Source: an uncultured Gammaproteobacteria bacterium
GTDB lineage: Bacteria; Patescibacteriota; Patescibacteriia; UBA9570; JBBTWU01
Reading direction: 5' to 3'
Assembly: GCA_964364425.1 (NCBI GenBank)
Contig: CAYIMB010000001.1
Location: 6,941 to 70,940 of the forward strand
DNA length: 64,000 nt
The notes below the pieces were generated by a model that was not told the origin of the DNA, searched no databases, and was given only the letters and a program-made list of their open reading frames with translations. The translations under genes were made by a program, and so were the position numbers. This document shows, in pieces, positions 402 through 59,256 of the stretch; position 1 is the stretch's first letter, and each line of letters starts with the position of its first letter.

Positions 402-1250
402 ATGAGACTGAGCGAACAAGCAAAATCACACGGTCGCCTGCGTACTCGAAGTCAAGATATGTTGGGAGAACAGCAGAGTGAATCCAATCCCATTGCGGAG
501 TTACAATTTTTGTTTACGCCAGAAGTGAAGGAGAGGATAGAAGATCCAAGTCAAATTCTCAGTGGAGAACATCGAACCCAATATGCCATAGCATATATTT
601 TGCAACAAGCGATTCCGGATTTAGATTTTTCTCGTCTTGAAGAAACTACTCGAGCACAACTCTCAACCTCTTTAGTTTTTGGATCCATGATTGCTGCTGA
701 ACTACAGAAAGATACCTTTGATCCCGCTTTGATTCGCATACTTGCTCTTGATGTGTCCTGTGCGCCTGAGCGTCGGTCAACAGTGGTCATTCCAGACAAT
801 GTATTTAACCATTGGCTACAGTTGTTAGACCAACGAGACCGGTCTGGAGACCAAAGCGCATTTTTAGTTGCTCAAACGTTATTTGATTTGCTTGTGCTGA
901 GACCAGATAAACAAGCAGACCTGCAAGACTATTTGCATAGTCATGGTTGGGATGAAGTATTATGGCGAGGAAAGCGGATTGAGGTCAGTGCTCATGCCTT
1001 AGCCACGGCTCAAGTTCGGGTAATTGAACCGCGGTATTCACTCACTCTTCAAGAAAGGAAAGCCTATCTACGTGAATATGCAGAAGCACAACAAACTCCA
1101 ATATTAGCTCCCTCAATCACGGGTTGGGCTGCTCTTGCCATTTTACTCAGTCCTGAAGTGGAGATGAATAGTCAGGGTCGAGTCGTTTTGAAAAATCAGA
1201 AACAAGCAGTTGATCAGCTCAGGCCTCTTCCGCCAAGAATAGTTGTGTAG
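402..1250 (+). CDS. Hypothetical protein (282 aa)
   Basis: ATG at 402, three bases after the upstream stop. No motif recognised. Confidence 0.5.
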   Translation: MRLSEQAKSHGRLRTRSQDMLGEQQSESNPIAELQFLFTPEVKERIEDPSQILSGEHRTQYAIAYILQQAIPDLDFSRLEETTRAQLSTSLVFGSMIAAELQKDTFDPALIRILALDVSCAPERRSTVVIPDNVFNHWLQLLDQRDRSGDQSAFLVAQTLFDLLVLRPDKQADLQDYLHSHGWDEVLWRGKRIEVSAHALATAQVRVIEPRYSLTLQERKAYLREYAEAQQTPILAPSITGWAALAILLSPEVEMNSQGRVVLKNQKQAVDQLRPLPPRIVV

Positions 1251-1323: not shown

Positions 1324-4251
1324 ATGAAAGAAAAAGGACAGAAAATAGGGCCGGCGCAAGGACCATTAGCCAAGATGGAAGAGAAGATTATTGCCTTGTG
1401 GAAAGACAAGAATATTTTTGAGCAAGTCCTCAAGAAAAATGAGGGAAAGCCGTACTGGGTATTTTTTGAAGGGCCGCCTACAGCCAACGGACGTCCGGGA
1501 ATTCATCATGTCTTGGGCCGTACATATAAAGACCTGTACTTGCGTTATAAAACCATGCAAGGGTTTATGATTAAGCGCAAGGCCGGATGGGACACGCATG
1601 GTTTGCCGGTGGAACTGCAGGTGGAAAAGGAATTGGAGATTTCTGGGAAACAGTTTATTGAAAATTTGGTACCAGGTGATAAGCGCGCGTCAATTGAACT
1701 GTTCAACAAAAAATGTAAAGAGAGCGTGTGGAAGTTTAAGGATGAGTGGGAGAAGCTCACGGTGCGTTCCGGTGTTTGGCTGGATGTGCAACATCCTTTC
1801 ATCACCTATGAACGTTCATATATGGAATCTTTGTGGTGGATCTGCAAGCAACTTTGGGAAAAGGATTTGTTGTATCAAGGGCATAAGGTAGTACCGCATT
1901 GTCCGCGGTGTGAAACAACTTTGTCTACACATGAATTAGCGCAAGGGTATAAAGAGGTGACAGAAACCTCTGTGTACATGAAGTTTCAGTCGGCGGATGA
2001 TCCTCAGACCTATTTTTTGAGTTGGACTACTACGCCCTGGACTTTACCGGGAAACGTTGGGTTGGCCGTGGGACCAGAATTTACCTATGTGAAAATAAAA
2101 ACCCAAGGCAAACATGGTGAGGAATTTTGGTGGTTAACAAAAGAACGTTTGAGTATATTGGAAGGTGTGGCATATGCAGTAGTGGAAGAGAAATTGGGTA
2201 AGGATTTGGTTGGTATGAAGTATCAGCCATTATGGCCAGAAGCTATTCCGCAAGCAGCCACTCACGGAACGCGCGCCTTTGAAGTCTTGCCAGCTGCCTT
2301 TGTGACCACCACAGACGGTACCGGAATTGTGCACACGGCTGTGATGTACGGCGTAGATGACTATGAGTTAGGTGTTAAAGTTGGCTTGCCGCAAGTACAT
2401 ACGGTGAATATGAACGGAAAATTTGTTGACCATATTCCCGAGATCGGTGGAAAATTTGTTAAGGCTGAGGCAGTGGAGAAATCGATTTTAAATTATTTGG
2501 AGGAGCACAATAATTTATTCAAACAAGAAAAGTATACGCACGATTATCCTTTTTGTTGGCGCTGCTCCACGCCAGTCTTATACTACGCCAAGACCTCATG
2601 GTTTGTGCGCATGACTCAGGTGAAGAAAGAATTGTTAGAAAATAATGAAAGTGTGCACTGGGTTCCAGAGCATATCAAACATGGGCGCATGGGAGAGTGG
2701 TTGAATGAATTGAAGGATTGGGCATTCTCACGTGAACGGTATTGGGGAACGCCGTTGCCAATTTGGATTTGCGAAGGTTGTGGAGAAAAGCATGTGGTGG
2801 GGAGTATGGCAGAGGTAGAGAAGTTAGGCGGCAGACCGTTGCCGGACCCACACCGTCCGTTTGTGGATGATGTGGTTTGGTCATGTGACAAATGCGGAAA
2901 GACCATGCGCCGAATCCCGGAAGTGGCGGATGTCTGGTTTGATTCCGGAGCCATGCCCTATGCTCAATGGCATTATCCGTTTGAAGGTCAGGCAGAGGTT
3001 GGGAAGTTGGAAGAACTGAGTGGTGAACAATTCCCGGCCGACTTTATTGTGGAGGCCATAGATCAAGCTCGCGGTTGGTTTTATACCCTACTGGCCGTAT
3101 CCACTGCCTTGGGCAGGCCAGCACCTTTCAAGAATTGCTTGGTCTATGGCCACATTATGGATAAGCAAGGGAAAAAAATGTCTAAGTCCAAGGGCAATGT
3201 GGTTGACCCGTGGAGTATGATTGATGCGTATGGAGCTGATGCTACACGTTTATACTTGATGGCTGCCAGTCAGCCCTGGGACTCCAAAAACTTTGACCCA
3301 GAGGGCGTGGCTGAAACCATGCGTTCAAACATGATGATTTTGTGGAATGTCTTGGCCTTTTGGAATACATTTGTGAAAGAGGCTGGATTGAACCGTGGGG
3401 TGACTGAGACGCCAAAAGCACAACATATTTTGGACAAATGGATGTTGTCTCGCGTGTTCCAAACTCAGCAGGTCATGACCGAACAGTTGGATCAATTCCA
3501 GGTTACGGAAGTGGCTCGTCAGATTCCTGCGTTGATCACAGATTTGTCCACTTGGTACATTCGTCGTTCCAGAGACAGATTTAAAACGGGCACACCAGCC
3601 GAGCGCCAAGCCGCAGCCGACACGCTTAGCTTTGTCTTACTGACACTGGCCAAGTTGCTAGCCCCTATCACCCCATTCATAGCTGAACAGGTGTACCAAA
3701 CCGTGGGTGGCTCAACTGATTCGGTGCATTTAGAAGATTGGCCGCACATGGAAGTTCCTCAAGATGAAGCTAAAGTATTAATAGAAATGAAGGGGTTGCG
3801 TACTTGGGTGGAGCAAGCCTTAGCCTTGCGTCAGGAACAGGGGATCAAAATTCGCCAACCCTTACCCGCCCTTACTATACCGGCTAAAAATCTTGCCGCT
3901 GACTTAACTGCAGTCTTGCAGGATGAATTAAATGTGAAAGAAATACGTTTTGGTAAAATCCTAGAGCTAGATGTGAACATTACACCTGAATTAAAAGCTG
4001 AGGGCTTAGTGCGTGAGTTTACCCGGCAAGTGAATGCCTTACGCAAAAGCACCGGACTGACTGTGAAGGATATTCGTCCTCTGTACATTGAAACAACTCA
4101 AGAGCTAAAAGCGGCCATTCAGGCGCATGAAGCGTTTGTGGTGCAAACCACCAAAGCTTCTGCCCTTCATTTTGGGTCGCTTCCAGCAGATGTTACGCCC
4201 ACTCCGGTCAAGGTGGATGCCGCAGTCGCCCAAGTTGGTTTTGGGCAGTAA
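1324..4251 (+). CDS. ileS: Isoleucyl-tRNA synthetase
   Basis: HIGH-type motif PGIHHVLG, KMSKS motif, Zn-binding CWRC, editing domain, 975 aa. Confidence 0.93.
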   Translation: MKEKGQKIGPAQGPLAKMEEKIIALWKDKNIFEQVLKKNEGKPYWVFFEGPPTANGRPGIHHVLGRTYKDLYLRYKTMQGFMIKRKAGWDTHGLPVELQVEKELEISGKQFIENLVPGDKRASIELFNKKCKESVWKFKDEWEKLTVRSGVWLDVQHPFITYERSYMESLWWICKQLWEKDLLYQGHKVVPHCPRCETTLSTHELAQGYKEVTETSVYMKFQSADDPQTYFLSWTTTPWTLPGNVGLAVGPEFTYVKIKTQGKHGEEFWWLTKERLSILEGVAYAVVEEKLGKDLVGMKYQPLWPEAIPQAATHGTRAFEVLPAAFVTTTDGTGIVHTAVMYGVDDYELGVKVGLPQVHTVNMNGKFVDHIPEIGGKFVKAEAVEKSILNYLEEHNNLFKQEKYTHDYPFCWRCSTPVLYYAKTSWFVRMTQVKKELLENNESVHWVPEHIKHGRMGEWLNELKDWAFSRERYWGTPLPIWICEGCGEKHVVGSMAEVEKLGGRPLPDPHRPFVDDVVWSCDKCGKTMRRIPEVADVWFDSGAMPYAQWHYPFEGQAEVGKLEELSGEQFPADFIVEAIDQARGWFYTLLAVSTALGRPAPFKNCLVYGHIMDKQGKKMSKSKGNVVDPWSMIDAYGADATRLYLMAASQPWDSKNFDPEGVAETMRSNMMILWNVLAFWNTFVKEAGLNRGVTETPKAQHILDKWMLSRVFQTQQVMTEQLDQFQVTEVARQIPALITDLSTWYIRRSRDRFKTGTPAERQAAADTLSFVLLTLAKLLAPITPFIAEQVYQTVGGSTDSVHLEDWPHMEVPQDEAKVLIEMKGLRTWVEQALALRQEQGIKIRQPLPALTIPAKNLAADLTAVLQDELNVKEIRFGKILELDVNITPELKAEGLVREFTRQVNALRKSTGLTVKDIRPLYIETTQELKAAIQAHEAFVVQTTKASALHFGSLPADVTPTPVKVDAAVAQVGFGQ

Positions 4252-7513: not shown

Positions 7514-8614
7514 ATGTTGAATCAAGCGTTTACTCTTGCCCATACGCATGAGTCCGGAATTCGTCGGGGCGTGTTGCAGTTGGGTCATGGTCCGGTGGAA
7601 ACTCCGGCATTTATGCCTATAGCCACGGTTGGGGCAGTCAAGGCGTTAACCATGCAACAGGTGGCTGCCCTGAAACCCAGCATCATTTTAGCTAACACCT
7701 ATCATTTATCACTTCGTCCTGGGCTAGAAGTGATTTCTGCAGCTGGCGGATTACACAGGTTTATGGGTTGGGATAAAAATTTACTCACGGACTCGGGTGG
7801 TTTTCAGATTTTTTCTTTGGCCAAATTAGTTGAGCGGGACTTAGATGGAGTGTCTTTCCGCTCCCATATTGACGGAAGTTTAGTCCGTATGACACCGGAG
7901 CGGTCCATGGAGGTTCAAACCGTTTTGAACCCGGATATTGCCATGTCGTTTGATTGGTTTCCCGGTTTCCCGGCCAAAGAATCTGAGGTAGAGGAGTCGG
8001 TCAAACACACCTCCGCATGGGCCTCCCGGTCTAAACAGGCTTTTCGGGGTGACGGGTTGTTGTTTGGGATAGTCCAGGGAGGGATGTTTCCGGAATGGCG
8101 AGAACGTTCTGCGGCAGAACTCTCAGCCATGGACTTTCCCGGATACGCAGTTGGCGGGTTGGCCGTAGGAGAATCATTTACTGAACGTGAACGGATTTTG
8201 CAAACGACTACGCCATTTTTACCTCAACACAAACCTCGTTATGCCATGGGTGTTGGTTTACCTGAGGATATACTATCAGCCGTTCGGGCAGGGATAGACT
8301 TATTTGATTGTGTGATCCCAACGCGTGAAGGCCGTCACGGGAAAATTTATACCGGAGGAATGTTGAATGACGACCTGACCCGCGTGGAGTACCATACCAT
8401 CAATATTTCCTCGTCTGCTTATAGGCTTGATATGTCACCGCTTGACCCAAAATGCGAATGCTCAGTTTGTACCACAGGTGTTACCCGCGCTTATACCCGT
8501 CATTTGTTTACCATAGATGAACCGGCAGCTTTTACAATAACCTCTGTTCATAATCTGTATTTTTATTTGTCCTTGATGCAACGCATTCGCGACCGCACAG
8601 AACAGGCTCACTGA
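7514..8614 (+). CDS. tgt: Queuine tRNA-ribosyltransferase
   Basis: LTDSGGFQ catalytic motif and the Zn site CxCxxC...H near the C-terminus. Confidence 0.9.
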   Translation: MLNQAFTLAHTHESGIRRGVLQLGHGPVETPAFMPIATVGAVKALTMQQVAALKPSIILANTYHLSLRPGLEVISAAGGLHRFMGWDKNLLTDSGGFQIFSLAKLVERDLDGVSFRSHIDGSLVRMTPERSMEVQTVLNPDIAMSFDWFPGFPAKESEVEESVKHTSAWASRSKQAFRGDGLLFGIVQGGMFPEWRERSAAELSAMDFPGYAVGGLAVGESFTERERILQTTTPFLPQHKPRYAMGVGLPEDILSAVRAGIDLFDCVIPTREGRHGKIYTGGMLNDDLTRVEYHTINISSSAYRLDMSPLDPKCECSVCTTGVTRAYTRHLFTIDEPAAFTITSVHNLYFYLSLMQRIRDRTEQAH

Positions 8615-9210
8615 CATTTTTTCCACACGCCAAGGTTGAGACTGCGCGCGGCTGTTTGAGCTGACGTGAAATCTGTGGCATGTGCCAGATCCGGGGGATA
8701 GACTACGGCGTAAGCTAAACCCTCCTCCACCAACAACTGGTTCACAAAGACGCCATCCACATACACATAACGTAAGAGTCGACCGAATCTATCCTGATCA
8801 GAAACGTCTCTCACCAGCTGAACGGTTTTCCCCTCCACTAATTCTTTATTCCGTTTGGTAGCCGCCTGGGCATAACACTCTACGTGAGGAAAAATTTCCG
8901 GCGTATCAATCCCAATGTAGCGAACGTATGCGCCGTTACTTAAAATAATGGTATCCCCGTCTACTACTTGGGTGACCGTTAACTCTTGATCAGCTCTGCC
9001 AGTTTCTGCTAATTGGGTCAATGCGGGGAGCTGTGGCCAACCGGTCTGATCAGCAGTCTGAGCCCCAACAATTTGGAATAACCCCAATAAAAATAGGAAG
9101 GCAAAGGCTATAGCGGCAAACGCCCCTTCTCTGCGGTGGAAGTCCCGCACGGCTTTAGCGGCCCGCCGGACATGGTGATGCCATTTAGGTTTGGAGTGAC
9201 TGGTAGACAT
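8608..9210 (-). CDS. Thermonuclease (SNase-like) family nuclease with N-terminal membrane anchor
   Basis: VVDGDTI...YIGIDTPE SNase motifs and an N-terminal hydrophobic helix. Confidence 0.75.
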   Translation of the reverse strand: MSTSHSKPKWHHHVRRAAKAVRDFHRREGAFAAIAFAFLFLLGLFQIVGAQTADQTGWPQLPALTQLAETGRADQELTVTQVVDGDTIILSNGAYVRYIGIDTPEIFPHVECYAQAATKRNKELVEGKTVQLVRDVSDQDRFGRLLRYVYVDGVFVNQLLVEEGLAYAVVYPPDLAHATDFTSAQTAARSLNLGVWKKCQ

Positions 9211-9262
9211 GGGAACAGTCTAGACAGATGCGTAAAGATACGCAACTTGGTATACTGTCCCC

Positions 9263-9679
9263 ATGTTTGGATTGACTGGACAAGTGATAGGATTTATTGC
9301 CAAAGATATTGTTTGGAATACGGTGTATTTTCCCATTTGGTGGTACACCCGTGGGATTTTGCGTATCTTGGTGTTAATGAAGCACCAAGTGTCCAGCCTG
9401 GCCCGCACATTGCATTTACCCACGTTGTTCAAATATTTGTTGAAACCAATGTACGGCTACACAGACATCATTAGTCGGATCATCAGTTTTTACGTACGCA
9501 TAGTTCAGTTTATTGTTCTCTTGCTGATCACGTTGGTTGTGGTTGTAGGCCTGGTAGTCCTCTTAGCGGTGTGGATTACCGCGCCGGTCTTGGTTCTGTA
9601 TGGAGTTGCCTTCCACTTGGGTTGGATTGAGTTTAATCTTTATGCCTTGATTGCATGGAACGTTGGACTCCCAGTGTAG
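9263..9679 (+). CDS. Hypothetical integral membrane protein (138 aa)
   Basis: Several hydrophobic helices; lies directly upstream of the Clp-like gene. Confidence 0.5.
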   Translation: MFGLTGQVIGFIAKDIVWNTVYFPIWWYTRGILRILVLMKHQVSSLARTLHLPTLFKYLLKPMYGYTDIISRIISFYVRIVQFIVLLLITLVVVVGLVVLLAVWITAPVLVLYGVAFHLGWIEFNLYALIAWNVGLPV

Positions 9680-9684
9680 TTGGT

Positions 9685-12432
9685 ATGCAACTCCTCACCT
9701 GCCCTACATGCAGAGGATTTGGGTTTGAATTAACTCCAGGTGGAAGGCACGTCAAATGTGAACAATGCCAACATGAAGATTCGGTGATTGGGGTCATGCC
9801 GGACATGGTGCTGTACTTTTCTCGGCGCGTGAACAAGGTTTCCGTTCACGGACGCCGGTTTTTGCAATGGTTCCACCGCTTGGTGGATGTCATCTGTTTA
9901 GTTGCCGCTTTAGGCAGCCTGGGCTACGGCATCTGGTTTGTTGTCCAACAGACTGCGCAGGGTCAAGACACTCTTACGCTACTCATCACACCACACTCCA
10001 CAATCGCTTGGATTTGGGTTGGGGTGTTGCTGGTTTTATTTCTGATTTACCGGATAGCATCAGTCTCGGAACAGTTGAAAGTCTTACCTGAACTGTCTAT
10101 TGTCCAGTTACAAGAACACCGACTCACCGGCCTTAACCAGTGGCAAGCTGCTCACCAAATTAAAGGGAAGTCAAAGTTAAATTTGGCGGAATATTTAGCT
10201 GAAGACGGTATTCGGGCCATTGAAGATGCGGTCATTCTGGCAACACAGCTGAAGCATACTTCTGTCACGCCGGTGCATGTATTTGCCTCTGCCTTAAAGT
10301 CACCCCAAGCTTCCGTGGTGATAGGTCGGCTGGGGTTGGATTCAACCACGCTGATCAAGAAAGTTGCTTCAGCTTTACACCGACTAGATACCAAAGAGGC
10401 ATCCAAAGAAGTAGAGTTGTCCGCCAGTGCGCGTTCAGCCTTGGTTTTAGCCGGATACTTTGCCCGGCATGATAAGCGCCCCCGGGTAGAAGCCACTCAA
10501 CTGCTTCAAGCCACACTCCTACAAGATAAGTTGTTACAGGAAGTGTTTGAAGACATGGATGTAGATTTGCGCAGTGTATTCAACACTGTGGAATGGCTGC
10601 ACATCCAGAGCAATTTACGGGATAGGTTCAAACGCTGGCGGTCTACTCGGCGGGCCAAACCTAAGGGGATCATGAACCGGGCCATGACGGCTCGCCCCAC
10701 GCCGACCTTGGATTCCATTGGTCAGGATTACACCCAAGCCGCCCGGGCTGGCCACTTTGCCCCGCGCATTGGCCGAGATAAAGAAGTGGAGGAAGCCTTC
10801 CGGATTTTGCGTGAAGGAACGGGGAATGTACTTTTAGTGGGTGAGCCTGGCGCGGGTAAGTCGACCTTATTGGAGGGGATTGCCGAGCTGATGACTATGG
10901 AAGATGTGCCTAAAGCCTTGCAAGATAAACGGTTGGTGGTCATGGACCCGGGAGCTCTGGTGGCTGGGGCGTCTGGTGTGGGAGGCTTAGAACAACGCAT
11001 GCAAAATGTGATGCATGAAATTATCAAGGCGGGGAATGTGCTGCTTGGCATAGAAGATGTTCATCACTTGTTGGGAGCTTCCAGTGTTGGAGGGTCTGAA
11101 GATATTGGTCACCTTTTCATGAACTATTTGTCGCAAGGTTTTCTCCATGTTGTGGCCACTACCACAACGGAAGAGTTTCAAAAATATATCCAACCCCAGG
11201 AGACATTTTTACGTCGCTTTCAAATTGTGAAAGTGGGTGAACTGCCGCCGGAGGACGCCTTGCGGGTACTCATGGGCCGGTCTGGCATGGTGGAATACAA
11301 AGCAAAAGTATTTTTCTCGTATGCCGCACTGGCGGCATGTGTGGACCTCAGTGATAGGTATATCAAAGACCGCTATCTGCCGTCTAAAGCTTTGGACATT
11401 ATGGAAGAGGCCGCTTTGTACGCGGCGGAAAAACGTGGAGAGAAAACCATTGTGACTAAAGAAGATGTAGCCGCAGTGGTGAGTGAAAAAACCAACGTGC
11501 CAGTGACTTCAGTCGGAGCAGGGGAAGCGCAGCGTTTGTTGAATCTGGAACAAATTATGCATCAACGCATAGTCGGCCAAGATGATGCCATCTCAGCTAT
11601 TAGCTCCGCTATGCGCCGGGCGCGTGAGGAGCTGCGTGATATGAAGCGTCCCATTTCAAGCTTTTTGTTTTTAGGACCAACTGGTGTGGGTAAAACAGAA
11701 ACCGCTAAAACCCTGGCCCAAGTATACTTTGGGCAAGAAGAGCAGATGGTTCGGATTGATATGTCTGAATATCAGAATCAATATTCTTTGGACAAGCTGA
11801 TTGGCGCCTCAGGGCAACAGGGTCATTTGACTGAAGCGGTCAGGCAAAAACCATTTAGCGTTCTGTTATTTGATGAAGTGGAAAAAGCGCATCCGGATGT
11901 GTTGAATATTCTACTCCAACTCTTGGATGACGGACGGTTGACTGAAGGCACTGGCAAGACCATTGATTTTACCAACACCATTGTGATTGCTACCTCTAAC
12001 GCCGCCTCGGCACAAATTCAGCAAGCTTTCAGCGGTGGTGTGTCTTTAGAGGAGTTGAAACGTCAGTTGTTAGAGCAAGATTTACTCAAGTATTTCAGAC
12101 CTGAGTTGTTAAATCGATTTGACCATGTCACGGTCTTTACGCCTTTGAGTTTTAATGAAATCCTAGAGGTCACCCGCCGGCAGTTACAGGGAGTGGCCGA
12201 ATTAGTCGCTAAAAAGGGCATTTTCTTGGAGTTTTCTGACGAGGCCGTCCAAGATTTGGCCACCAAAGGCTATGATCCCAAGTTTGGCGCCCGGCCGCTC
12301 AGGCGCCTCATTCAGGACACGGTTGACGACGCCTTGGCAAAACTCCTATTAGAACATAAACTAAACCGTAGAGACGTCGTAGTTCTCCAAGCCGGCGGCC
12401 TCATGACTATTCGTAAAGCACAACAATTATGA
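9685..12432 (+). CDS. ClpA/ClpC-type double AAA+ unfoldase with N-terminal zinc ribbon and two TM helices (alternative start at 9655)
   Basis: CPTC...CEQC zinc ribbon, two hydrophobic helices, Clp_N-like repeats, and two AAA modules with Walker A motifs GEPGAGKST and GPTGVGKTE. No long M-domain and no IGF/VGF ClpP-docking tripeptide could be seen. Confidence 0.85.
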   Translation: MQLLTCPTCRGFGFELTPGGRHVKCEQCQHEDSVIGVMPDMVLYFSRRVNKVSVHGRRFLQWFHRLVDVICLVAALGSLGYGIWFVVQQTAQGQDTLTLLITPHSTIAWIWVGVLLVLFLIYRIASVSEQLKVLPELSIVQLQEHRLTGLNQWQAAHQIKGKSKLNLAEYLAEDGIRAIEDAVILATQLKHTSVTPVHVFASALKSPQASVVIGRLGLDSTTLIKKVASALHRLDTKEASKEVELSASARSALVLAGYFARHDKRPRVEATQLLQATLLQDKLLQEVFEDMDVDLRSVFNTVEWLHIQSNLRDRFKRWRSTRRAKPKGIMNRAMTARPTPTLDSIGQDYTQAARAGHFAPRIGRDKEVEEAFRILREGTGNVLLVGEPGAGKSTLLEGIAELMTMEDVPKALQDKRLVVMDPGALVAGASGVGGLEQRMQNVMHEIIKAGNVLLGIEDVHHLLGASSVGGSEDIGHLFMNYLSQGFLHVVATTTTEEFQKYIQPQETFLRRFQIVKVGELPPEDALRVLMGRSGMVEYKAKVFFSYAALAACVDLSDRYIKDRYLPSKALDIMEEAALYAAEKRGEKTIVTKEDVAAVVSEKTNVPVTSVGAGEAQRLLNLEQIMHQRIVGQDDAISAISSAMRRAREELRDMKRPISSFLFLGPTGVGKTETAKTLAQVYFGQEEQMVRIDMSEYQNQYSLDKLIGASGQQGHLTEAVRQKPFSVLLFDEVEKAHPDVLNILLQLLDDGRLTEGTGKTIDFTNTIVIATSNAASAQIQQAFSGGVSLEELKRQLLEQDLLKYFRPELLNRFDHVTVFTPLSFNEILEVTRRQLQGVAELVAKKGIFLEFSDEAVQDLATKGYDPKFGARPLRRLIQDTVDDALAKLLLEHKLNRRDVVVLQAGGLMTIRKAQQL

Positions 12433-34370: not shown

Positions 34371-36708
<2,338 letters not shown>

Positions 36709-36725
36709 ATCGATTATTACGCGAC

Positions 36726-37190
36726 ATGAAACTGACACTCAAAGTCACTACTCCAGACCGAACGTTGATCAACGCTGAAGTTGATCAGGTGACGGTACCT
36801 ACAAAAGAAGGGGAGATCACCATTCTCCCTGGACACGTGTCCTTAATGGGTGTGCTGGCACCAGGGGAATTAAGTATGAAAACTGATGCGAAGGAAGAAG
36901 CTGTTGTGGTCTACGGTGGCTTTGTGGATATCAGAGATGGAAGAGAAGTCAGAATTTTAGCTGATGAAGCTGCTCACGTTGCGGAGTTGGATTTAGAAAA
37001 GGCGGAAGCCGCACACGCTCTCGCGGTGCGGGTTATGGCTGAAAAGTTCAACCCAAGCGACTATGAAGATGCAGCACTTGCTGTTGAAAGAGAATTGGCG
37101 ACCATTCGAGTTGCTCGCAAATGGAAAGCCAAAGGCTTTGGAACAAGTACGGTGACAAGTGGGATCCCTGGGGCGCAAAGAAAAGAATAA
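36726..37190 (+). CDS. atpC: F-type ATP synthase subunit epsilon
   Basis: Beta-sandwich N-terminus, helical C-terminus, last gene of the operon. Confidence 0.85.
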   Translation: MKLTLKVTTPDRTLINAEVDQVTVPTKEGEITILPGHVSLMGVLAPGELSMKTDAKEEAVVVYGGFVDIRDGREVRILADEAAHVAELDLEKAEAAHALAVRVMAEKFNPSDYEDAALAVERELATIRVARKWKAKGFGTSTVTSGIPGAQRKE

Positions 37191-37193
37191 AAT

Positions 37194-37291
37194 AAAAACC
37201 GCAACAGCGGCTCAGAGGAGCGGGCTCATCCGGGAGCTTCAATCACCCTTCTTCGCCCATCTCCTCCTGCGCCGCTGTTTTTGCGTTTTTT
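37194..37291. terminator. Bidirectional Rho-independent terminator; its loop holds copy B of the hairpin repeat
   Basis: Stem AACAGCGGC (37203-37211) pairs with GCCGCTGTT (37271-37279). An A-tract precedes it and a T-tract follows. It sits between the convergent atpC gene and the minus-strand gene ending at 37290. Confidence 0.55.
37215..37276 (+). repeat. Copy B of the ~60-nt hairpin repeat
   Basis: Aligns with 34989-35053. The inner stem GGAG..GGGC/GCCC..CTCC carries two compensatory changes relative to copy A. Confidence 0.7.
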
Positions 37292-37673
37292 ATTTCTCTT
37301 CCTGGATCTGCGCCCTGAGTTTCTTCACTTTGTCAGCATCCTTCTTTTTCATTGCAGACTTGGTTGTCTGATGCACGGCATGTTCAATTTGATCAACTTC
37401 ATCCTCATATTTTTCAAACGCCTGGTTCATGAGTTTTTGAGCAAAACTAACTTCAACTGGATTATCTGGAAGGTCAGTTTCTAAGTCAGCCAATCTGGCC
37501 AAATCGCCCTCAATCGCTTTGACGGCTTGGTCTATAGCTTTGTTGATGGCTTCTTGGACACTGGCACTTAAACCGTGTTTTTCTAATTTATCTAAAAGTT
37601 TCTCCTTGATTTCAGGAGCTAGTTCTGCGGCCTCTAAAATTTCACGTGCCTCGACAGTTGTCATATATGCCAA
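37290..37673 (-). CDS. Hypothetical charged coiled-coil protein (127 aa)
   Basis: Protein-like composition, unlike the S/A-rich antisense plus-strand ORF 37519-38046. Confidence 0.5.
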   Translation of the reverse strand: MAYMTTVEAREILEAAELAPEIKEKLLDKLEKHGLSASVQEAINKAIDQAVKAIEGDLARLADLETDLPDNPVEVSFAQKLMNQAFEKYEDEVDQIEHAVHQTTKSAMKKKDADKVKKLRAQIQEEK

Positions 37674-38150: not shown

Positions 38151-38159
38151 GTGGGAAGT

Positions 38160-41100
38160 ATGGAAAAAATCTTAGACGGTCTGAATTCAGCTCAAGCCGA
38201 AGCGGTGTGCCACCGGAATGGTCCATTGTTGTTGGTGGCCGGAGCGGGGACGGGAAAAACGACAGTCATTACCAGGCGCTTGGCCAAGCTCATTCAGGAT
38301 GGGGTGGCTACTCCTGATCAGGTATTAGCTCTGACCTTTACTGACAAGGCAGCGGGTGAGATGGAAGAGCGTATAGATACTTTGATGCCCTATGGGTATA
38401 CAGATTTATGGGTATCTACATTTCATTCTTTTGGAGAACGTTTGCTCCATGAGTATGGGCTGGACATAGGCCTGCCGCATCAATTCAAATTGTTGAATCA
38501 AACGGATCAATGGTTACTCTTGCGCGAACATATTGAGGAATTGGGCCTGGAGTACTACCGGCCAAAAGGCAATCCGACCAAATTTGTTGAAGCGTTATCT
38601 CACCATTTTTCTCGTTTGAAAGATGAGATGATTACACCGGAGCAATATGTGGAATATGCAGAAAAGTTGTGTCTAAACTTAGACGCAGAAGTTGCGCGGA
38701 CAAAACAAACCTTAACAGATGAAGAACGGGCAGGTGCAGATGAAGCCATACGTATTCGCGAGTTAGCCCACGCCTACCATGTATATCAACAGTTATTACT
38801 GGCAGAAAACGCTTTAGACTTTGGTGATCTGATTTTCCATACCGTGCAGTTACTAAAAAAACGTCCGGCTATTTTAAAAAAATTGCGTGATCAATTTCGC
38901 TATATTATGGTAGATGAGTTTCAAGATACCAACTTGGCACAATACGAGCTGATCAAGTTAATTGCTTCACCTAAAAATAATTTGGTGGCCGTGGGTGATG
39001 ATGACCAATGCCTCCCGGTAGGAACAAAAGTAACCATCCCCGGCGGAGAAAAAAGTATTGAGAGCATTAAATCTGGCGATGTGGTTTTGACTGCAGTCGG
39101 GAAAGGAAGTTTGAGCACTTCCGTAGTTTTAGCCTGTTCAAAAAAGAAAAAGACTTCAAGATTTCTTACATTTCAACTAGAAGATGGTCATTCATTAACT
39201 GCTACAGATAATCACAAGCTTTTTTGTTACGTCCCAAGAATTGATCAAGGGGGTAGAACCTATGTTTATGTGATGCATAGTTCATTGTTTGGGTGGAGGA
39301 TTGGAATAACAAATGATTTGGCCACCAGGTTATCTTTAGAAAGGGGTGCTGATAAAATTATAGCTTTACGCTCATTTTCTGATCCAGATGAAGCGAAGTT
39401 CTATGAAATACTGTGGGTTCTGCGTTATCAAATTCCGCCTGTTTGTTTTAAAGAAAGAGAGGGGGTAGCCATTAAGGGGGAATGGTTGAGTCGTCTATAC
39501 CATGAAATAGACACTGAAAAGAATATACAAAAGTTAGCAAAAGATCTGAGGGTAGATTTGCATAGTCATCATGTTGGTTTAGATAGTGTCAATAGAGGTC
39601 GGGGCAAGCGGCTAAAGATTCATTTTAAACTTTGCTATAGAAGTCATAAAATAAAAGGGAGGAATGATTCGATTCTATCTCAACCCCTTGTTCAACATAT
39701 AGTTGAGTTCCAAACTTCCCAATTAGACATCATCCGGAAATTAAAGTTAGCGGGAATTGAAACTCAGAAAGCTAAAAAAGGAATCAGGATCAGAAAGGCA
39801 GGTGTTGACTTAACTGTATTAGAAAACTTTGCACAAAAGGTTGCAGAGATTACAACAGGCTACATTGAATACTCTTTCGATGTCGGGAGAGTAAATATAC
39901 AATCTAAAAAAGCTTTATGTATGCCAGCAGGGAATGTTGTGATTGGTCATTTTTTGCCCGTACAAGTTAAAAATCATATTGAGTATAAAAAGGTTATTGC
40001 TATTCAAGAAAAAGTTACTACGGAGAATGTATATGATTTGGAGATTGCCAGAAGTCACAACTTTTTGGCTAATGGAGTAGTAGTACATAATTCGATTTTC
40101 AAATGGCGTGGAGCATCCGTGTCTAATATTCTGCACTTCCAAAAAGATTTTCCAAACCTGAAGCAAATCGTGCTCACAGAAAATTACCGGTCAGGGCAAC
40201 CTATTCTGGATTTAGCCTACCAATTCATTCAGCAAAATAATCCGGACCGTTTGGAATCAAAACTAGAGATTCAAAAACGGTTGGTGGCTAAGTCAGGACG
40301 TGAGGGAAAGGTATTTCATTTGCGCAGTATGACCGGAGAAGGTGAGGCGCATACTATTGTGAGAAAGATTGCGGAGTTGAAACAGGAACATCCGGACTGG
40401 ACCTGGAGTGATTTTGCCGTTTTGGTTAGGGCGAATGATCATGCGGAAAGTATTTTACCGTTGTTGGAACGGGCCAACATTCCTTACCAGTATGTAGCTT
40501 CCACGGGATTATTTTTGAAACCGCTTATGTTGGATATTTTGTCGTATTTGCGCGTGGTGGAAAATGTGCATAACAATTTGGCTTTGTACCGCGTGCTGAC
40601 CATGCCCATGTGGAAGCTGGCGGCAGAAGATGTGATGGCAGTGTTGAATTACACTGCCCGCAAACCGGTGGGGATGTTGGACACGCTGAAGAACTGTCGA
40701 GCCATTGGGGGCCTGAGCGTTCCAGCGTGTGTGACCATAGAACGCATGCTTTCACTCATGGCCCAGCACTCCCAATTGGTGCGTGAAAAACATGCGGGAG
40801 AGGCGGTCTTGAAGATTGTTCAAGACGTTGGATTGATGAAATGGATGACGGATCAAGAGGAACAGAAGGCGGCACAACATTTGGTCTTACTCAACCAATT
40901 ATTCCAACTGATCGCCTCGTTTGAACAAAGTGCTGAGGATAAGCGGGTTAAATACTTTCTACACAACGTAGATTTAATGCTTGAGGCTGGGGATGCTGGT
41001 GCACTGAAAGTAGATATTGATGAAGGGCCGGAATCAGTTAAAGTCATGACGGTACACGCTTCCAAGGGTCTGGAGTTTCAAGCCGTATTTGTCACCAATC

Positions 41101-42182
41101 TAGTGGATAAACGATTTCCTTCAGTTGGTCGGAACGAACCTATTTCTGTTCCGGATGATTTGCTCCAAGAAATTTTACCCACCGGGGATGCGCATCTTCA
41201 AGAGGAACGTCGTTTATTTTATGTTGCCTGTACCCGGGCTAAACAATACTTATTCCTTACCAGTGCGGAAGATTACGGTGGTATGCGGAAGAAAAAACCC
41301 AGCCGGTTTTTAGTTGAATGTGGATTGGCTGAAGTCAAAGCTGAACCAACCGGCGTGGTGGCCTTTGCAGCGCAAGATCAGGCCATTCCTGCGGAACGCG
41401 CTGTGGTGTTGTCGCATGCCCCTGAGACGTTTAGCTTCTCCCAATTTGAGGCCTATGAACGCTGTCCCTGGCAATACCGGTACCGGTTTGTCCTCAAAGT
41501 ACCGGCCCCCGGAAACTACTCAGCTTCCTTTGGTCGTAGCGTGCATGACACCTTGTTGGAGTTTTTTAAACGTGTGCGGTCTAACACAGAAGCCTCACAG
41601 GGCACGTTGTTTGGTCCGGCGGAAAAACTTACGCTTCCCACAGACAAAGACCTCCTCCAAATTTTTGAAGACAAATGGCAGTCTGATTGGTATGCTACAC
41701 CCAAAGCTGAACAAGAATATAAAGAAGCCGGTCGTAACGCCTTAAAAGAGTTTTACAACATCCATCATCAGGCCTGGCCCAAGGTGAAGTATTTGGAAAA
41801 AGGATTTTCTTTGCGTCTAAAAGACGTCACGGTGAAAGGTAAAATTGACCGGGTAGATGGAGTGGGAGATTCAAAGGTTCAGGTCAATGTGGTGGATTAT
41901 AAAACTGGGCGGTTCAAAGAAAAGAAAGACTTCAACCAGTTGTTTATTTACGCCATGGCCATTCAGGACGTGTTTAAAGAAGAACCGCAACAGGTTGGAT
42001 ATTATTTTATTGAAGAAAATAAACCTTTGGATAAACCGGTGACTCAGCAGGCCTTAGACAAAACGCGTGATTGGGTGCTGAACCTAGCTGAGCAAATTCT
42101 GTCCGGCGACTTTACGCCCTCCCCAGGCCAGCAATGCCAATTTTGTGATTACCGCTCCATTTGTGAATTTAGAGCGGTTTAA
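38160..42182 (+). CDS. UvrD/PcrA-family helicase fused to a C-terminal Cas4/AddB-like PD-(D/E)xK nuclease with a Cys cluster; interrupted by an intein
   Basis: Walker A motif GAGTGKT, motif II DEFQD, motif III VGDDDQ/SIFKWRGA split by the intein, C-terminal VVDYKTG nuclease motif and C...CxxCx5C cysteines. The ATG at 38160 is preferred over the GTG at 38151. Confidence 0.85.
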   Translation: MEKILDGLNSAQAEAVCHRNGPLLLVAGAGTGKTTVITRRLAKLIQDGVATPDQVLALTFTDKAAGEMEERIDTLMPYGYTDLWVSTFHSFGERLLHEYGLDIGLPHQFKLLNQTDQWLLLREHIEELGLEYYRPKGNPTKFVEALSHHFSRLKDEMITPEQYVEYAEKLCLNLDAEVARTKQTLTDEERAGADEAIRIRELAHAYHVYQQLLLAENALDFGDLIFHTVQLLKKRPAILKKLRDQFRYIMVDEFQDTNLAQYELIKLIASPKNNLVAVGDDDQCLPVGTKVTIPGGEKSIESIKSGDVVLTAVGKGSLSTSVVLACSKKKKTSRFLTFQLEDGHSLTATDNHKLFCYVPRIDQGGRTYVYVMHSSLFGWRIGITNDLATRLSLERGADKIIALRSFSDPDEAKFYEILWVLRYQIPPVCFKEREGVAIKGEWLSRLYHEIDTEKNIQKLAKDLRVDLHSHHVGLDSVNRGRGKRLKIHFKLCYRSHKIKGRNDSILSQPLVQHIVEFQTSQLDIIRKLKLAGIETQKAKKGIRIRKAGVDLTVLENFAQKVAEITTGYIEYSFDVGRVNIQSKKALCMPAGNVVIGHFLPVQVKNHIEYKKVIAIQEKVTTENVYDLEIARSHNFLANGVVVHNSIFKWRGASVSNILHFQKDFPNLKQIVLTENYRSGQPILDLAYQFIQQNNPDRLESKLEIQKRLVAKSGREGKVFHLRSMTGEGEAHTIVRKIAELKQEHPDWTWSDFAVLVRANDHAESILPLLERANIPYQYVASTGLFLKPLMLDILSYLRVVENVHNNLALYRVLTMPMWKLAAEDVMAVLNYTARKPVGMLDTLKNCRAIGGLSVPACVTIERMLSLMAQHSQLVREKHAGEAVLKIVQDVGLMKWMTDQEEQKAAQHLVLLNQLFQLIASFEQSAEDKRVKYFLHNVDLMLEAGDAGALKVDIDEGPESVKVMTVHASKGLEFQAVFVTNLVDKRFPSVGRNEPISVPDDLLQEILPTGDAHLQEERRLFYVACTRAKQYLFLTSAEDYGGMRKKKPSRFLVECGLAEVKAEPTGVVAFAAQDQAIPAERAVVLSHAPETFSFSQFEAYERCPWQYRYRFVLKVPAPGNYSASFGRSVHDTLLEFFKRVRSNTEASQGTLFGPAEKLTLPTDKDLLQIFEDKWQSDWYATPKAEQEYKEAGRNALKEFYNIHHQAWPKVKYLEKGFSLRLKDVTVKGKIDRVDGVGDSKVQVNVVDYKTGRFKEKKDFNQLFIYAMAIQDVFKEEPQQVGYYFIEENKPLDKPVTQQALDKTRDWVLNLAEQILSGDFTPSPGQQCQFCDYRSICEFRAV
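39009..40091 (+). mobile_element. Intein (361 aa) in helicase motif III
   Basis: Begins with Cys directly after VGDDDQ, has a block-B TxxH (TATDNH), and ends VVVHN followed by Ser. The extein halves rejoin to the canonical GDDDQSIFKWRGA. Confidence 0.8.
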
Positions 42183-51285: not shown

Positions 51286-54011
<2,726 letters not shown>

Positions 54012-56620: not shown

Positions 56621-57724
56621 ATGGCACTGGGAGCATTTCCATCCCAGTATATCCGCAGGCTGATTGAGGAAGGTGCTGTTATTGGTGCCAGTCAAACCAA
56701 TATTCAACCTTCTTCTTTGGATTTGACCTTGTCTGAAGAGGCGTGGCGCATGCCTGGCATATTTTTACCGCGGCCAGGGGAAACCATTCATGACATTATC
56801 AAAACTGGCGGGGGAGAGCCCTGGGATTTATCCAAGCCCCTGCCTTTGCGCGGAATCTTTTTTGTGCGCTTGCGTGAGTCTTTGAAATTACCTTCAACGG
56901 TGATTTTTGCTTACGCTAACAACAAAAGCTCAACCGGGCGTATTAATTTACAAACTCGTTTGATTTGTGACGGAGTGAGTCAGTTTGACAAAGTGCCTCG
57001 TGGCTACGCCGGTGAGTTGTGGTTAGTGATTAGTCCGCGCTCTTTTAATATTCAAATGCATCCAGGGGCAGCTTTGAATCAACTCCGTTTCTTTAATTCT
57101 GATACGCGCCTGAACTACACAGATCATTTGGCCTTGTATGAGTATTTCAACTTACTCTGGAATCCAGATCATACTCCTATCTCACGGGATGAAGTCCATT
57201 TCGATCTGCACGGGGGAATCACCATGTCGGTGAACTTAGACCAAGACGTCATAGGATACTCCGCCACACAGAATCCAAATGTGACTCTGGATATTTCACG
57301 CTCTGATCATGATCCACATGATTTTTTCCGTCCACTCCACCGACCAGAAAATGGGCGCTTGATGTTGTTGCGTGATGAATTTTATATTCTTTCCACCATA
57401 GAACAGATTGCTGTTCCGCCGGAATTTTCTGTAGAGATGGTAGCGTATGATCCATCTAAGGGTGAATTCCGTAGCCATTATGCCGGTTTCTTTGATCCGG
57501 GCTTTGGGTTTGGAGAGAAGGGTGAGGTCAAGGGCACAACGGCTGTTTTAGAGGTATATCCGCATGATAACGACTTCTTTTTGCGTCATGGGCAACCAAT
57601 CTGTAAAATGGTGTATGAGCGTTTGGCTACGTTTCCGGAGTTGGTTTATGGCACCGGCAACCTGAAGTCGAATTACCAGAAACAGTCAGGACCTCGTCTC
57701 AGTAAATATTTTAAATCAGCTTAA
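56621..57724 (+). CDS. dcd: 2'-deoxycytidine 5'-triphosphate deaminase, long form (DCD family)
   Basis: N-terminus resembles the dCTP deaminase/dUTPase fold, and the ~360-aa size is typical of long-form DCD. Confidence 0.6.
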   Translation: MALGAFPSQYIRRLIEEGAVIGASQTNIQPSSLDLTLSEEAWRMPGIFLPRPGETIHDIIKTGGGEPWDLSKPLPLRGIFFVRLRESLKLPSTVIFAYANNKSSTGRINLQTRLICDGVSQFDKVPRGYAGELWLVISPRSFNIQMHPGAALNQLRFFNSDTRLNYTDHLALYEYFNLLWNPDHTPISRDEVHFDLHGGITMSVNLDQDVIGYSATQNPNVTLDISRSDHDPHDFFRPLHRPENGRLMLLRDEFYILSTIEQIAVPPEFSVEMVAYDPSKGEFRSHYAGFFDPGFGFGEKGEVKGTTAVLEVYPHDNDFFLRHGQPICKMVYERLATFPELVYGTGNLKSNYQKQSGPRLSKYFKSA

Positions 57725-57819
57725 ATATCTCGATCGCGAGGCTCAGAGAGTGCATGCTTTGACGGAGCCCCAATCACCGTCACGCACGCATCTCTCTTGC
57801 GCCTCGCTCTCAAAATTCT

Positions 57820-59256
57820 ATGTCAGATTGGCCAGTCTACTTTAAAGAGAACTTGATTGTTGGAAATCTTGACTCCGGAGTTGGAGTCGCTACGCTTTGG
57901 TCTCCGCGGGAAGCTATTGCCAAGGGTCTAGACCCTAAGACCTATTGCGTGATTGGTCAGTTGTATGCCAATGATGGGATTAATCCCATGATTCGGAATA
58001 TCATGGCCAGGCCGCAAATCAGAACACTGGTGCTATGCGGTCAGGATAAAATTGGTTCAGCCGATTCTTTGGCTCATTTGATTAACAACGGCATAGATGA
58101 AAAAGGGAAGGTGGTAGGCAAGCCGGAGTCAAAAGTGGAAAAAGAAATTCCACGGGAAGCGGTGGAGAAATTCCGGCAGAATGTGAAGCTGGTGGATATG
58201 CGTGGAGTGTTTGATACGGTTAAAATCCAGACCGCCATTAATGAGGTGTCTCAAGACAATACGGCGTTTGCAGAACCACAATTATTCCCGGAGCCGGAGA
58301 TTTCCACTGACCGGTACCCAACAGATGCTTCCACCATCAAAATTCGGGGAAAGTTTGTTGGCGACGTGTGGCTGCGTCTACTCTGGCACATCATGCGGTT
58401 TGGGGCAGAAAAACAGTCACATCACGGGACGAACCAGAAAGAGTTGTGGAATGTAGTCACTGTCATAGAGGAAGAAGATCCGACTCATATCAAATGGTCG
58501 CCGTGGTTTAATTTCACACAGGAACATTTTGAAGGGTATAAGCCGCAAGTGATGACTAAAGAGAAAATTCCTTCGTTGGAATATACCTACGGTCAACGCC
58601 TGAGAGATCATGACGGGATTGACCAGATTGCTTCCATTAAAGAAAAGCTCAAAAAAGAGCCGTTCAGCCGGCGGGCTGTGGGCGTGACTTGGAATGTGCA
58701 GTTGGATGATTCCAGCACCCATCCACCATGTTTAGATATTGTGCAGTGTGTGGTTCAAGATGAACTGTTGTTGATGAATTGTTACTTCCGTTCCAATGAC
58801 ATGTTTAGAGCTTGGCCGGAAAACGCTTTGGCTTTGCGCACCATGCAAAAAGAAATTGCAGACGAACTGGGAATCATGTTGGGTTCTTTGACCATTGTTT
58901 CAGCTTCTGCACATGTGTACGAAGAAAGTTACGCGGCGATCAAGGAGATGTTGAAGGAGTATTATCCTAAGGCCCTTGATTTTTGTGAATTTGATCCACG
59001 AGGTAATTTTGTCATCTCAGTCTCAAACGGAACTATCAACTTGATTCAGATGAATCCCACCGGATCAAAAATTGGAACGTACTCAGGAAAGACTGCCATG
59101 CAAGTCTATCAAAAGCTGGTTGAAGATTATGCGGTATCTATTATTGGACATGCCTTAGATTTAGGCGGAGAGTTACAAAAAGCTGAGATGTGTTTGCGTT
59201 TAGGTATTCAGTATACGCAGGACCGCCCAGTGCCGTTTCAGGATTTGAAAAAGTAG
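57820..59256 (+). CDS. thyA: Thymidylate synthase (ThyA family) with an uncharacterised N-terminal extension of about 175 aa
   Basis: HPPCLD catalytic-Cys motif, YFRSNDMF...WPEN, SAHVYEE, and an upstream GTNQKELWNV region. Confidence 0.7.
   Translation: MSDWPVYFKENLIVGNLDSGVGVATLWSPREAIAKGLDPKTYCVIGQLYANDGINPMIRNIMARPQIRTLVLCGQDKIGSADSLAHLINNGIDEKGKVVGKPESKVEKEIPREAVEKFRQNVKLVDMRGVFDTVKIQTAINEVSQDNTAFAEPQLFPEPEISTDRYPTDASTIKIRGKFVGDVWLRLLWHIMRFGAEKQSHHGTNQKELWNVVTVIEEEDPTHIKWSPWFNFTQEHFEGYKPQVMTKEKIPSLEYTYGQRLRDHDGIDQIASIKEKLKKEPFSRRAVGVTWNVQLDDSSTHPPCLDIVQCVVQDELLLMNCYFRSNDMFRAWPENALALRTMQKEIADELGIMLGSLTIVSASAHVYEESYAAIKEMLKEYYPKALDFCEFDPRGNFVISVSNGTINLIQMNPTGSKIGTYSGKTAMQVYQKLVEDYAVSIIGHALDLGGELQKAEMCLRLGIQYTQDRPVPFQDLKK

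Follow-up and report, generated by a model that had tools for sequence, protein, structure and literature searches.

The 64,000-nt stretch of DNA analyzed here (the window) belongs to a groundwater Patescibacteria (Candidate Phyla Radiation, CPR) metagenome-assembled genome (MAG) from Hainich groundwater, and it contains three copies of a short, hairpin-forming palindromic repeat. One of them, copy B, fills nearly all of the 99-nt spacer (37191-37289) between atpC, at the end of the ATP synthase (atp) operon, and a convergent gene. We consider it probable that the repeat is a lineage-restricted palindromic element of the same general kind as the repetitive extragenic palindromic (REP) sequences and REPINs, the Rickettsia palindromic elements (RPEs), and the terminator-like SPRITE repeats, and that its copies have been accommodated in different ways: copy B has been co-opted as a terminator, copy A is tolerated inside the gene for the ATP synthase gamma subunit, and copy C occupies an operon spacer. 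The family itself is uncatalogued, but it belongs to a familiar kind and does not amount to a new type of system. The evidence comes from the window, from syntenic contigs of relatives (given L numbers below) that were fetched by means of the AtpG and DCD homologues of the window, and from a second assembly that sampled the same population. A covariance model (CM), R1, was trained on eight copies of the repeat and then scanned over the window and the relatives' contigs.

Positions 34984-35049, within atpG, match positions 37210-37275, in the spacer, at 58 of 66 positions, and a 21-nt core pattern matches copies A and B alone in the window, where 0.00 matches are expected. The first-pass annotation, which described the spacer hairpin as the second copy of a repeat, was thus correct about the existence of two copies, but it missed both the in-frame position of the other copy inside atpG and a third, diverged copy at 57731-57814. 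The further copies and the better-than-shuffled folds on which that annotation had made its case depend are both there: the third copy scores 41.3 bits (E 4e-8), and orthologous copies occur in relatives. On 7 contigs taken together, 10 copies are significant by the CM, and L008 has a nested variant besides; the 64-kb window contributes 3 copies, the 18.5 kb of L003 contribute 2, and the 21 kb of L014 contribute 1.

The repeat has a core of 66 to 67 nt, which grows to as much as ~88 nt with stem extensions specific to each site. Its end signature, GCTCRG...CYTGYGC, has three matches in the window, which are copies A, B, and C only (0.21 expected). In a common orientation, the 5' end is of the type CRGCTCRG and the 3' end of the type CYTGCGCYG, exactly so in 8 of 10 copies; the two copies from the dcd-thy site have A/T at the outermost pair instead. 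The outer pair CRGC/GCYG closes the same number of copies (8/10) and covaries, being CAGC/GCTG in some and CGGC/GCCG in others. Each arm also has a small palindrome of its own (GCTC-N4-GAGC and GCGCA-N8-TGCGC). The apical motif GGAGC..CAA..ACC is common to all 10 copies, and the unpaired sequence at the apex hardly varies, if at all, irrespective of orientation. When the apical motif GGAGCTTCAAWYACC was searched by itself in the window with up to 3 mismatches allowed, 10 matches came up where 5.5 are expected, and the close ones are the three element copies only. Two weak CM matches, at 8582-8672 and 9205-9268, are not members of the family.

Every copy folds better than its shuffled controls. 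For copies A and B, 200 shuffles each were used, both strands being folded as RNA and the sequence also as DNA. As RNA, copy A has z scores of -3.99 and -4.12 on the two strands and copy B has z scores of -5.07 (+) and -5.67 (-), with no shuffle as stable in either case, so that the folding check proposed in the first-pass annotation turns out in its favor. Copy B is similarly stable as DNA (z = -4.32; 0 of 200 shuffles), and copy C folds with z = -5.81 (+) and -8.16 (-). The differences between copies respect this structure. Between copies A and B, 10 of the 70 columns of the alignment differ (8 of 66 positions), where two differences had originally been counted. Three of the 10 are unpaired; the other seven fall in stems, where pairing survives every one of them through three double changes (AT to GC, GC to AT, and CG to GC) and one change from GU to AU. 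The CG-to-GC exchange, at alignment columns 25/61, is the C-to-G and G-to-C pair already recognized as compensatory.

The pattern extends to all 10 aligned copies from the 7 contigs, in which 23 pairs were scored: pairing holds in 95.1% of cells, whereas column shuffles give 79.9% (none of 500 reaching the observed value) and slid partners 41 to 57%, and 13 of the 23 pairs have changed on both sides. A structure-independent alignment (MAFFT/RNAalifold) gave a similar picture, and G-U pairs are tolerated at columns 16/72 in 4 of the 10 copies. These figures bear out the earlier proposal of a REP/MITE-like repeat that conserves structure rather than a chance similarity (MITE, miniature inverted-repeat transposable element). 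The covariation is stronger than had been claimed, but the step from covariation to selection on structure is confounded by template switching, which copies one arm of a palindrome from the other and can make "compensatory" pairs in a single event. Because imperfect palindromes are hotspots of template-switch mutation, according to one published study (PMC7202029), that step is not secure.

Copy B has the layout expected of a terminator that works in both directions. An A-tract and a T-tract flank its stem arms, AACAGCGGC (37203-37211) and GCCGCTGTT (37271-37279), and these, together with the inner stem GGAG-C-GGGC...GCCC-AT-CTCC, are present as the first-pass annotation quoted them. The arrangement AATAAAATAAAAA-hairpin-TGTTTTTGCGTTTTTT between convergent genes provides a U-tract 3' of the hairpin on each strand. 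The convergent gene is also called in L001, L003, and L009, and the order of A-tract, hairpin, and T-tract is kept in the window, L003, and L008, whichever way the element is oriented. Since this layout recurs in L003 and, with the element reversed, in L008, bidirectional termination is a reasonable inference, with copy B as the stem-loop of a putative rho-independent terminator serving atpC and the convergent gene. A scan of the minus strand for terminators called only a small alternative hairpin, with the tail TTATTTTATT.

The same annotation had placed the repeat inside the loop of the terminator. The comparison of copies points to a different arrangement. From CRGC/GCYG inward, the stem is part of the element and is found also in coding copy A, so the CGGC/GCCG of the supposed terminator stem belongs to the repeat, and the part of copy B that is specific to the site shrinks to ~5 bp (AACAG/CTGTT) and the A/T tracts. 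Judged by its shared stems, then, the repeat itself would form the terminator hairpin instead of having come to lie within an older one.

Two further observations concern the copy B hairpin within the population. In the second assembly (L001; 3 single-nucleotide polymorphisms [SNPs] in 13,086 nt), the base at window position 37222 (L001 4971) is C and not G, which gives GCGC...GCCC with a C-C mismatch, a half-compensated state of copy B. This allele may be a true evolutionary intermediate, or it may reflect gene conversion or assembly cross-talk from copy A, which are conceivable because the C equals the base of copy A. A Logan contig (L002) terminates at window position 37201, at the foot of the hairpin, which suggests that the repeat disrupts assembly.

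Copy A is an RPE-style palindromic insertion in frame, and the reading frame is open in both orientations of the element. In an AlphaFold model of AtpG, residues 196 to 241 have a predicted local distance difference test (pLDDT) score of <50 and form a loop between the strand at 185 to 190 and the C-terminal helix. We infer that copy A is translated as a disordered stretch of ~25 amino acids (aa) in a variable surface loop of gamma, where it would be tolerated. The gamma subunits of chloroplasts and cyanobacteria presumably carry their redox-regulatory insertion in this loop. A protein-level function of the insert was considered and rejected: it is unlikely because forward and reversed copies in atpG encode unrelated peptides (one of them GDARGRVIEAPERARS), and the model predicts disorder in this region. 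A search of the 31-aa gamma insert against 1.84 billion representative proteins returned no match and so no other host protein.

The forward "type 1" loop (window 34998-35006, minus strand) has an in-frame TGA when it is read in reverse (...EAPG*ARS), and all reversed atpG copies carry CGA or GAG at the position of that TGA (APERARS and APEREDS; L004 4400-4486 and L003 8119-8205). Only stop-free variants thus appear to survive in reverse inside atpG. The flanks outside the core are complementary as well (GGAGATG/CATCTCC in the window, TCTCTG/CAGAGA in L007, GCTGG/CCAGC in L005); they differ by lineage, partly reuse host codons, and have P values of 0.001 to 0.008 relative to random flank pairs. 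In L008, the atpG insert (1139-1285) shows the family end motifs twice, at 1173-1244 and 1193-1244 (minus strand), around a different interior (GGACGCG...CGCGTCC), and looks like a nested insertion or a copy with a replaced center; P0003 encodes a variant identical to it. Separately, P0012, a distant Patescibacteria AtpG (48% identity), carries an unrelated insertion of ~20 aa, AQAVADREAAAGKKDKGE, at alignment columns 215 to 245, in the same loop as copy A, which suggests that the gamma loop accepts insertions in general.

Copy C lies in a 95-nt spacer between dcd and a thymidylate-synthase-like gene, which are co-directional, and has no T-tract. Its orthologue in L014 (11111-11192) shares 37 of 39 central positions with it, against identities of 0.55 and 0.47 at the 4-fold degenerate sites of dcd and thy (P about 4e-8); here and below, the 4-fold sites of the adjacent genes (atpG, or dcd and thy) are the neutral yardstick. 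The thymidylate-synthase-like gene belongs to a dcd-thy-tmk-dut cluster, and its product has an N-terminal MtrA-like domain and a fused C-terminal pterin-binding DUF4346. Coordinates of the three copies and their neighbors are given in Table 1.

Table 1. Coordinates of the repeat copies and the adjoining genes and tracts in the window (MFE, minimum free energy; ORF, open reading frame)
Feature	Position	Strand	Basis or remark
Copy A, full hairpin, 88 nt, in frame inside atpG (core 34982-35048)	34972-35059	+	CM 99.5 bits
atpG, gene for ATP synthase gamma, containing copy A	34371-35336	+	Pfam PF00231, homologues
Copy B, full hairpin	37198-37285	+	RNA MFE -41.7 kcal/mol; CM 96.9 bits
Copy B, conserved core, 67 nt, CGGCTCAG to CCTGCGCCG	37208-37274	+	Direct repeat; end-signature match
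A-rich tract AATAAAAACCGC, 5' of the copy B hairpin	37191-37202	+	Sequence; U-tract source for minus-strand transcript
T-rich tract TGTTTTTGCGTTTTTT, 3' of the copy B hairpin	37276-37289	+	Sequence; U-tract source for atp operon transcript
atpC (epsilon), final atp operon gene, upstream of copy B	36726-37190	+	PF02823
Convergent ORF, ~124-127 aa, stop codon abutting the T-tract	37290-37673	-	ORF list; weak DUF6657 match
Copy C, diverged third copy (core 57739-57804)	57731-57814	+	CM 41.3 bits, E 4e-8
dcd (dCTP deaminase)	56621-57724	+	Pfam
Thymidylate-synthase-like gene	57820-59256	+	Pfam

The element is present at some orthologous sites and missing from others. The atpG insert was found in 8 of the 10 closest AtpG homologues and is missing from P0007 (L009), from P0010 (L010), and from every more distant homologue. 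At the site downstream of atpC, L003 and L008 have the element, and the two genes of L009 are merely 15 nt apart; at the dcd-thy site, L014 has it, and L015 has a spacer of 8 nt. Scans with the CM and the end motifs found no copies anywhere on the contigs L009, L010, and L015, of which the latter two come from one common sample, and this points to a family confined to a subclade.

Orientation varies at the same sites. In atpG, the window, L005, and L007 have the copy in forward orientation, whereas in L004, L003, and L008 the asymmetric hairpin as a whole is turned around; at the terminator, the window and L003 have a forward copy and L008 a reversed one. On the AtpG tree, the forward and reversed states are interleaved, and at least three flips plus one loss are needed. 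The window, L004, L003, and L008 agree in the 5' boundary of the insertion, 32 nt after the LPFS codons, and have related flanks. The shared boundary and flanks favor in-place inversion, through recombination between the arms, as an economical explanation that would account for the orientation pattern. Hairpin-bounded microinversions are known elsewhere to be homoplasious.

The copies also seem to evolve in concert. Loop identity is 0.97 within a genome (copies A and B of the window; copies A and B of L003) versus 0.76 between orthologous copies, and the three subtypes of the element are discordant with the host tree, the terminator copy of L008 being of the copy C subtype. Within-genome likeness and subtypes at odds with the host tree indicate probable gene conversion or replacement between copies. 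The core identity of 0.72 to 0.91 compares with 0.42 to 0.65 at the 4-fold sites of atpG, by which measure the element is far more conserved than adjacent neutral sites.

Searches for known families placed the repeat in none of them. Rfam 15 gave no match in the window at the gathering threshold, and below it only microRNA-precursor hairpins appeared, at 15 to 22 bits against thresholds of 62 to 184. No insertion sequence (IS) was found in the window or the relatives' loci, and we found no report of such a repeat in the CPR. Three candidate identities were dropped: an integron attC site, as the copies do not have the R''/R' core sites (RYYYAAC/GTTRRRY) in common; a CRISPR repeat, as there is no array; and a tRNA-like element, as there is no cloverleaf.

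Several results weigh against the interpretation of the repeat as a dispersed element with one copy in use as a terminator. Two exact patterns, each of which fits every known copy, had no match in the GTDB representative genomes, the JGI metagenomes, or IMG/VR, collections that are without the window's own genome, and blastn against plasmids and phages found nothing; the public collections thus give no sign of activity or horizontal spread. A scan of ~50 ORFs in the window yielded no candidate for a transposase, REP-associated tyrosine transposase (RAYT), or other mobilizing gene, only housekeeping genes and two inteins. The target-site duplications that the first-pass annotation had proposed to look for were not found, the flanks being inverted-complementary and not direct (L007 alone has a 4-nt coincidence, TCGC/TCGC). 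The terminal inverted repeats are weak: they are ~4 to 8 bp long and imperfect (CRGC/GCYG plus RG/CY) and cannot be told from the general palindromy of the element. There are only three copies in 64 kb, two of them 2.2 kb apart in one operon, so that the "dispersed family" amounts to three sites. As DNA, copy A folds only marginally better than its shuffles (z = -1.86; 10 of 200 equally good). The large copy B hairpin is not called by a consensus terminator scanner, as the loop exceeds the usual length: it has ~29 nt, including an inner 3-bp helix, versus 3 to 8 nt in compact intrinsic terminators. Finally, conservation above the neutral level at orthologous sites may as easily reflect a host function as selfish persistence.

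That last point leads to explanations in which the element serves its host. It could be a cis-acting structured RNA in mRNAs, an RNase III-type processing site or a barrier to 3' exonucleases that tunes atp and dcd/thy expression. All three window copies are on the transcribed strand of plus-strand operons in one element orientation; their stems are long (20 bp or more, with bulges), covary strongly, and tolerate the G-U pairs noted above, and conservation exceeds the neutral expectation. Against this, the reversed orthologues (atpG site of L003, L004, and L008; terminator site of L008) would present a complementary loop, and their G-U pairs would become A-C mismatches. The occurrence of both orientations at orthologous sites therefore argues against a strand-specific structured RNA, and both strands fold equally well, no Rfam family is reached at the gathering threshold, and the relatives L009, L010, and L015 live without the element. 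We regard this reading as rather unlikely. Orientation independence suits a role at the DNA level, in which the apical motif, on a cruciform or hairpin or in the duplex, would be read by a nucleoid, topoisomerase, or recombination protein, much as REP/BIME elements of Escherichia coli are bound by gyrase and IHF. The near-invariance of the apical sequence in 10 copies of either orientation, even where synonymous sites are saturated, speaks for such a site. Yet there is no known protein that binds it, outside the copies the window shows no enrichment of the motif by itself, element-free relatives exist, and three sites per 64 kb are sparse for a nucleoid organizer; a host-serving DNA site accordingly strikes us as an unlikely account of the family.

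Other alternatives turn on how the copies arose. In one, which builds on the placing of copy B within the terminator stem by the first-pass annotation and on the insertion preference that it proposed to test, a mobile repeat with a preference for terminator loops entered an older atpC terminator hairpin (AACAGCGGC/GCCGCTGTT). The site-specific outermost 5 bp and tracts, the seemingly nested atpG copy of L008 with its two sets of element ends, and the fact that MITE-like elements insert into each other (PMC10969869) would be compatible with this. But everything from CGGC/GCCG inward is shared with coding copy A, neither of the other copies is at a terminator (one is in coding sequence and the other between co-directional genes without a T-tract), and the L009 site, with its 15-nt spacer and no hairpin, gives no evidence of an ancestral terminator, so that we find invasion quite improbable and the preference for terminator loops not borne out. 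Least credible is the view that there is no family and that the likeness came about by chance, or through one local event (duplication or gene conversion) involving atpG and the atpC terminator. The two homogenized copies 2.2 kb apart in one operon might invite it, but an unlinked third copy 20 kb off, with an L014 orthologue of its own, an end signature in common, and a CM score of 41 bits (E 4e-8), the expectation of 0.00 chance matches to the core pattern, and the copy C subtype of the L008 terminator copy leave it very little credence. A more elaborate possibility is a persistent two-partner system in CPR bacteria, in which a RAYT-like or other hairpin-recognizing recombinase reads the apical motif, homogenizes the copies, and flips them in place; the atpG copy would be a cassette in frame whose inversion exchanges the peptide displayed by the gamma loop. 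The above-neutral conservation of the apex fits a dedicated enzyme and fits a host DNA- or RNA-level function equally, and we view the two-partner scheme with considerable doubt.

The lineage-restricted palindromic element that we prefer would behave as follows. A noncoding, presumably nonautonomous element would have spread to several sites, where it persists as a hairpin. The pattern of variation suggests that arm-to-arm template switching, selection, or both keep the stems paired and extend them into the flanks, that ectopic gene conversion may homogenize the copies within a genome, and that recombination between the arms may flip whole hairpins in place. It is possible, more speculatively, that the constancy of the apical sequence reflects recognition by a putative protein, such as a RAYT-like enzyme.

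The window has other features that do not involve the repeat. Of the two inteins, both with Hint/Intein_splicing domains, one is in a UvrD/AddB-like helicase-nuclease (38151-42182, 1,343 aa) whose orthologues in L003 (967 aa) and L009 (979 aa) are intein-free; GyrB (51315-54011, 898 aa) has the other, and its orthologues in L014 (679 aa) and L015 (688 aa) are intein-free. The IleRS gene contains a 15-nt inverted repeat (3054-3068 and 3137-3151; 93% complementary, 68 nt enclosed, z = -3.3) whose sequence is unrelated to the family. The spacer that separates ORF 9263 from a divergent SNase-like gene is taken up by an unrelated 62-nt palindrome at 9204-9268 (z = -3.9), whose complementary arms hold both start codons. 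A ClpB-like AAA+ protein (9655-12432, 925 aa) overlaps the preceding 138-aa ORF by ~25 nt, and a 14-nt inverted repeat (9602-9615 and 9681-9694; z = -3.3) spans the junction of the two genes.

Short palindromic repeats have been well studied in proteobacteria, Rickettsia, Neisseria, and pneumococci, and the ~1-Mb genomes of the CPR are usually deemed nearly repeat-free. Here, one small locus seems to bring together four behaviors that are usually described from separate systems, namely, use as a two-way terminator, RPE-style insertion in the frame of an essential enzyme, concerted evolution, and recurrent in-place inversion. It also offers a natural test case for whether "compensatory" changes in hairpins come from selection or from palindrome-driven mutation. 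On the practical side, such hairpins break assemblies and can yield false SNPs between copies in MAGs. The interest of the family would rise if the genome held many copies or a partner enzyme.

Among known systems, REP sequences and REPINs, as known from Pseudomonas and enterobacteria, resemble the repeat in several ways. Both are short, GC-rich, imperfect palindromes in which two inverted arms and a spacer make one long hairpin (z of -4 to -8 and 23 conserved pairs here), with small palindromes inside the arms, no target duplication, a location at the 3' ends of operons, and vertical persistence with a conserved sequence; REPINs, two inverted REPs forming a hairpin, persist vertically along with their RAYT, an IS200/IS605-type Y1 transposase whose gene REPs usually flank. 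The window repeat differs in having no RAYT in 64 kb, a copy number that looks low beside the tens to hundreds of REPs per genome, no sequence similarity to known REPs, and a CPR host. It is also only partly extragenic, as copies B and C are but copy A and its orthologues are translated inside atpG. MITEs such as Correia, ERIC, and BOX are alike in size, stable secondary structure, presence/absence polymorphism among relatives, and effects on transcripts; the repeat departs from them in its lack of a target-site duplication, its imperfect terminal inverted repeat of ~4 to 8 bp, and the lack of any known related autonomous IS.

In-frame RPE insertions, terminator-like SPRITE repeats, and elements that insert into one another are all precedents (PMC10969869). 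Like RPEs, the repeat is a palindrome lying in frame in a housekeeping protein, to which it adds a surface peptide while leaving the protein intact, and, as is reported for RPEs, some of its copies are intergenic (PMC10969869). RPEs, however, are ~100 to 150 bp long and carry a conserved peptide into many genes, whereas here a single coding insertion is known and the element is translated in either orientation among relatives, into unrelated peptides; with a Patescibacteria host and no Rfam or BLAST relative, the family is set apart from the RPEs, a separation made without an RPE consensus comparison. With terminator-like repeats of the SPRITE kind it shares dispersal and a hairpin with a T-tract that resembles an intrinsic terminator, copy B being placed just where a terminator is needed; it differs in that T-tracts are found at one of the three window copies and that the T/A tracts belong to the site and not to the core. 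Finally, although a whole repeat element flips here, in one case inside an essential ORF, its inversions resemble the hairpin-associated minute inversions of chloroplast noncoding DNA and the microinversions of birds, which are recurrent and homoplasious flips between short inverted repeats at orthologous sites.

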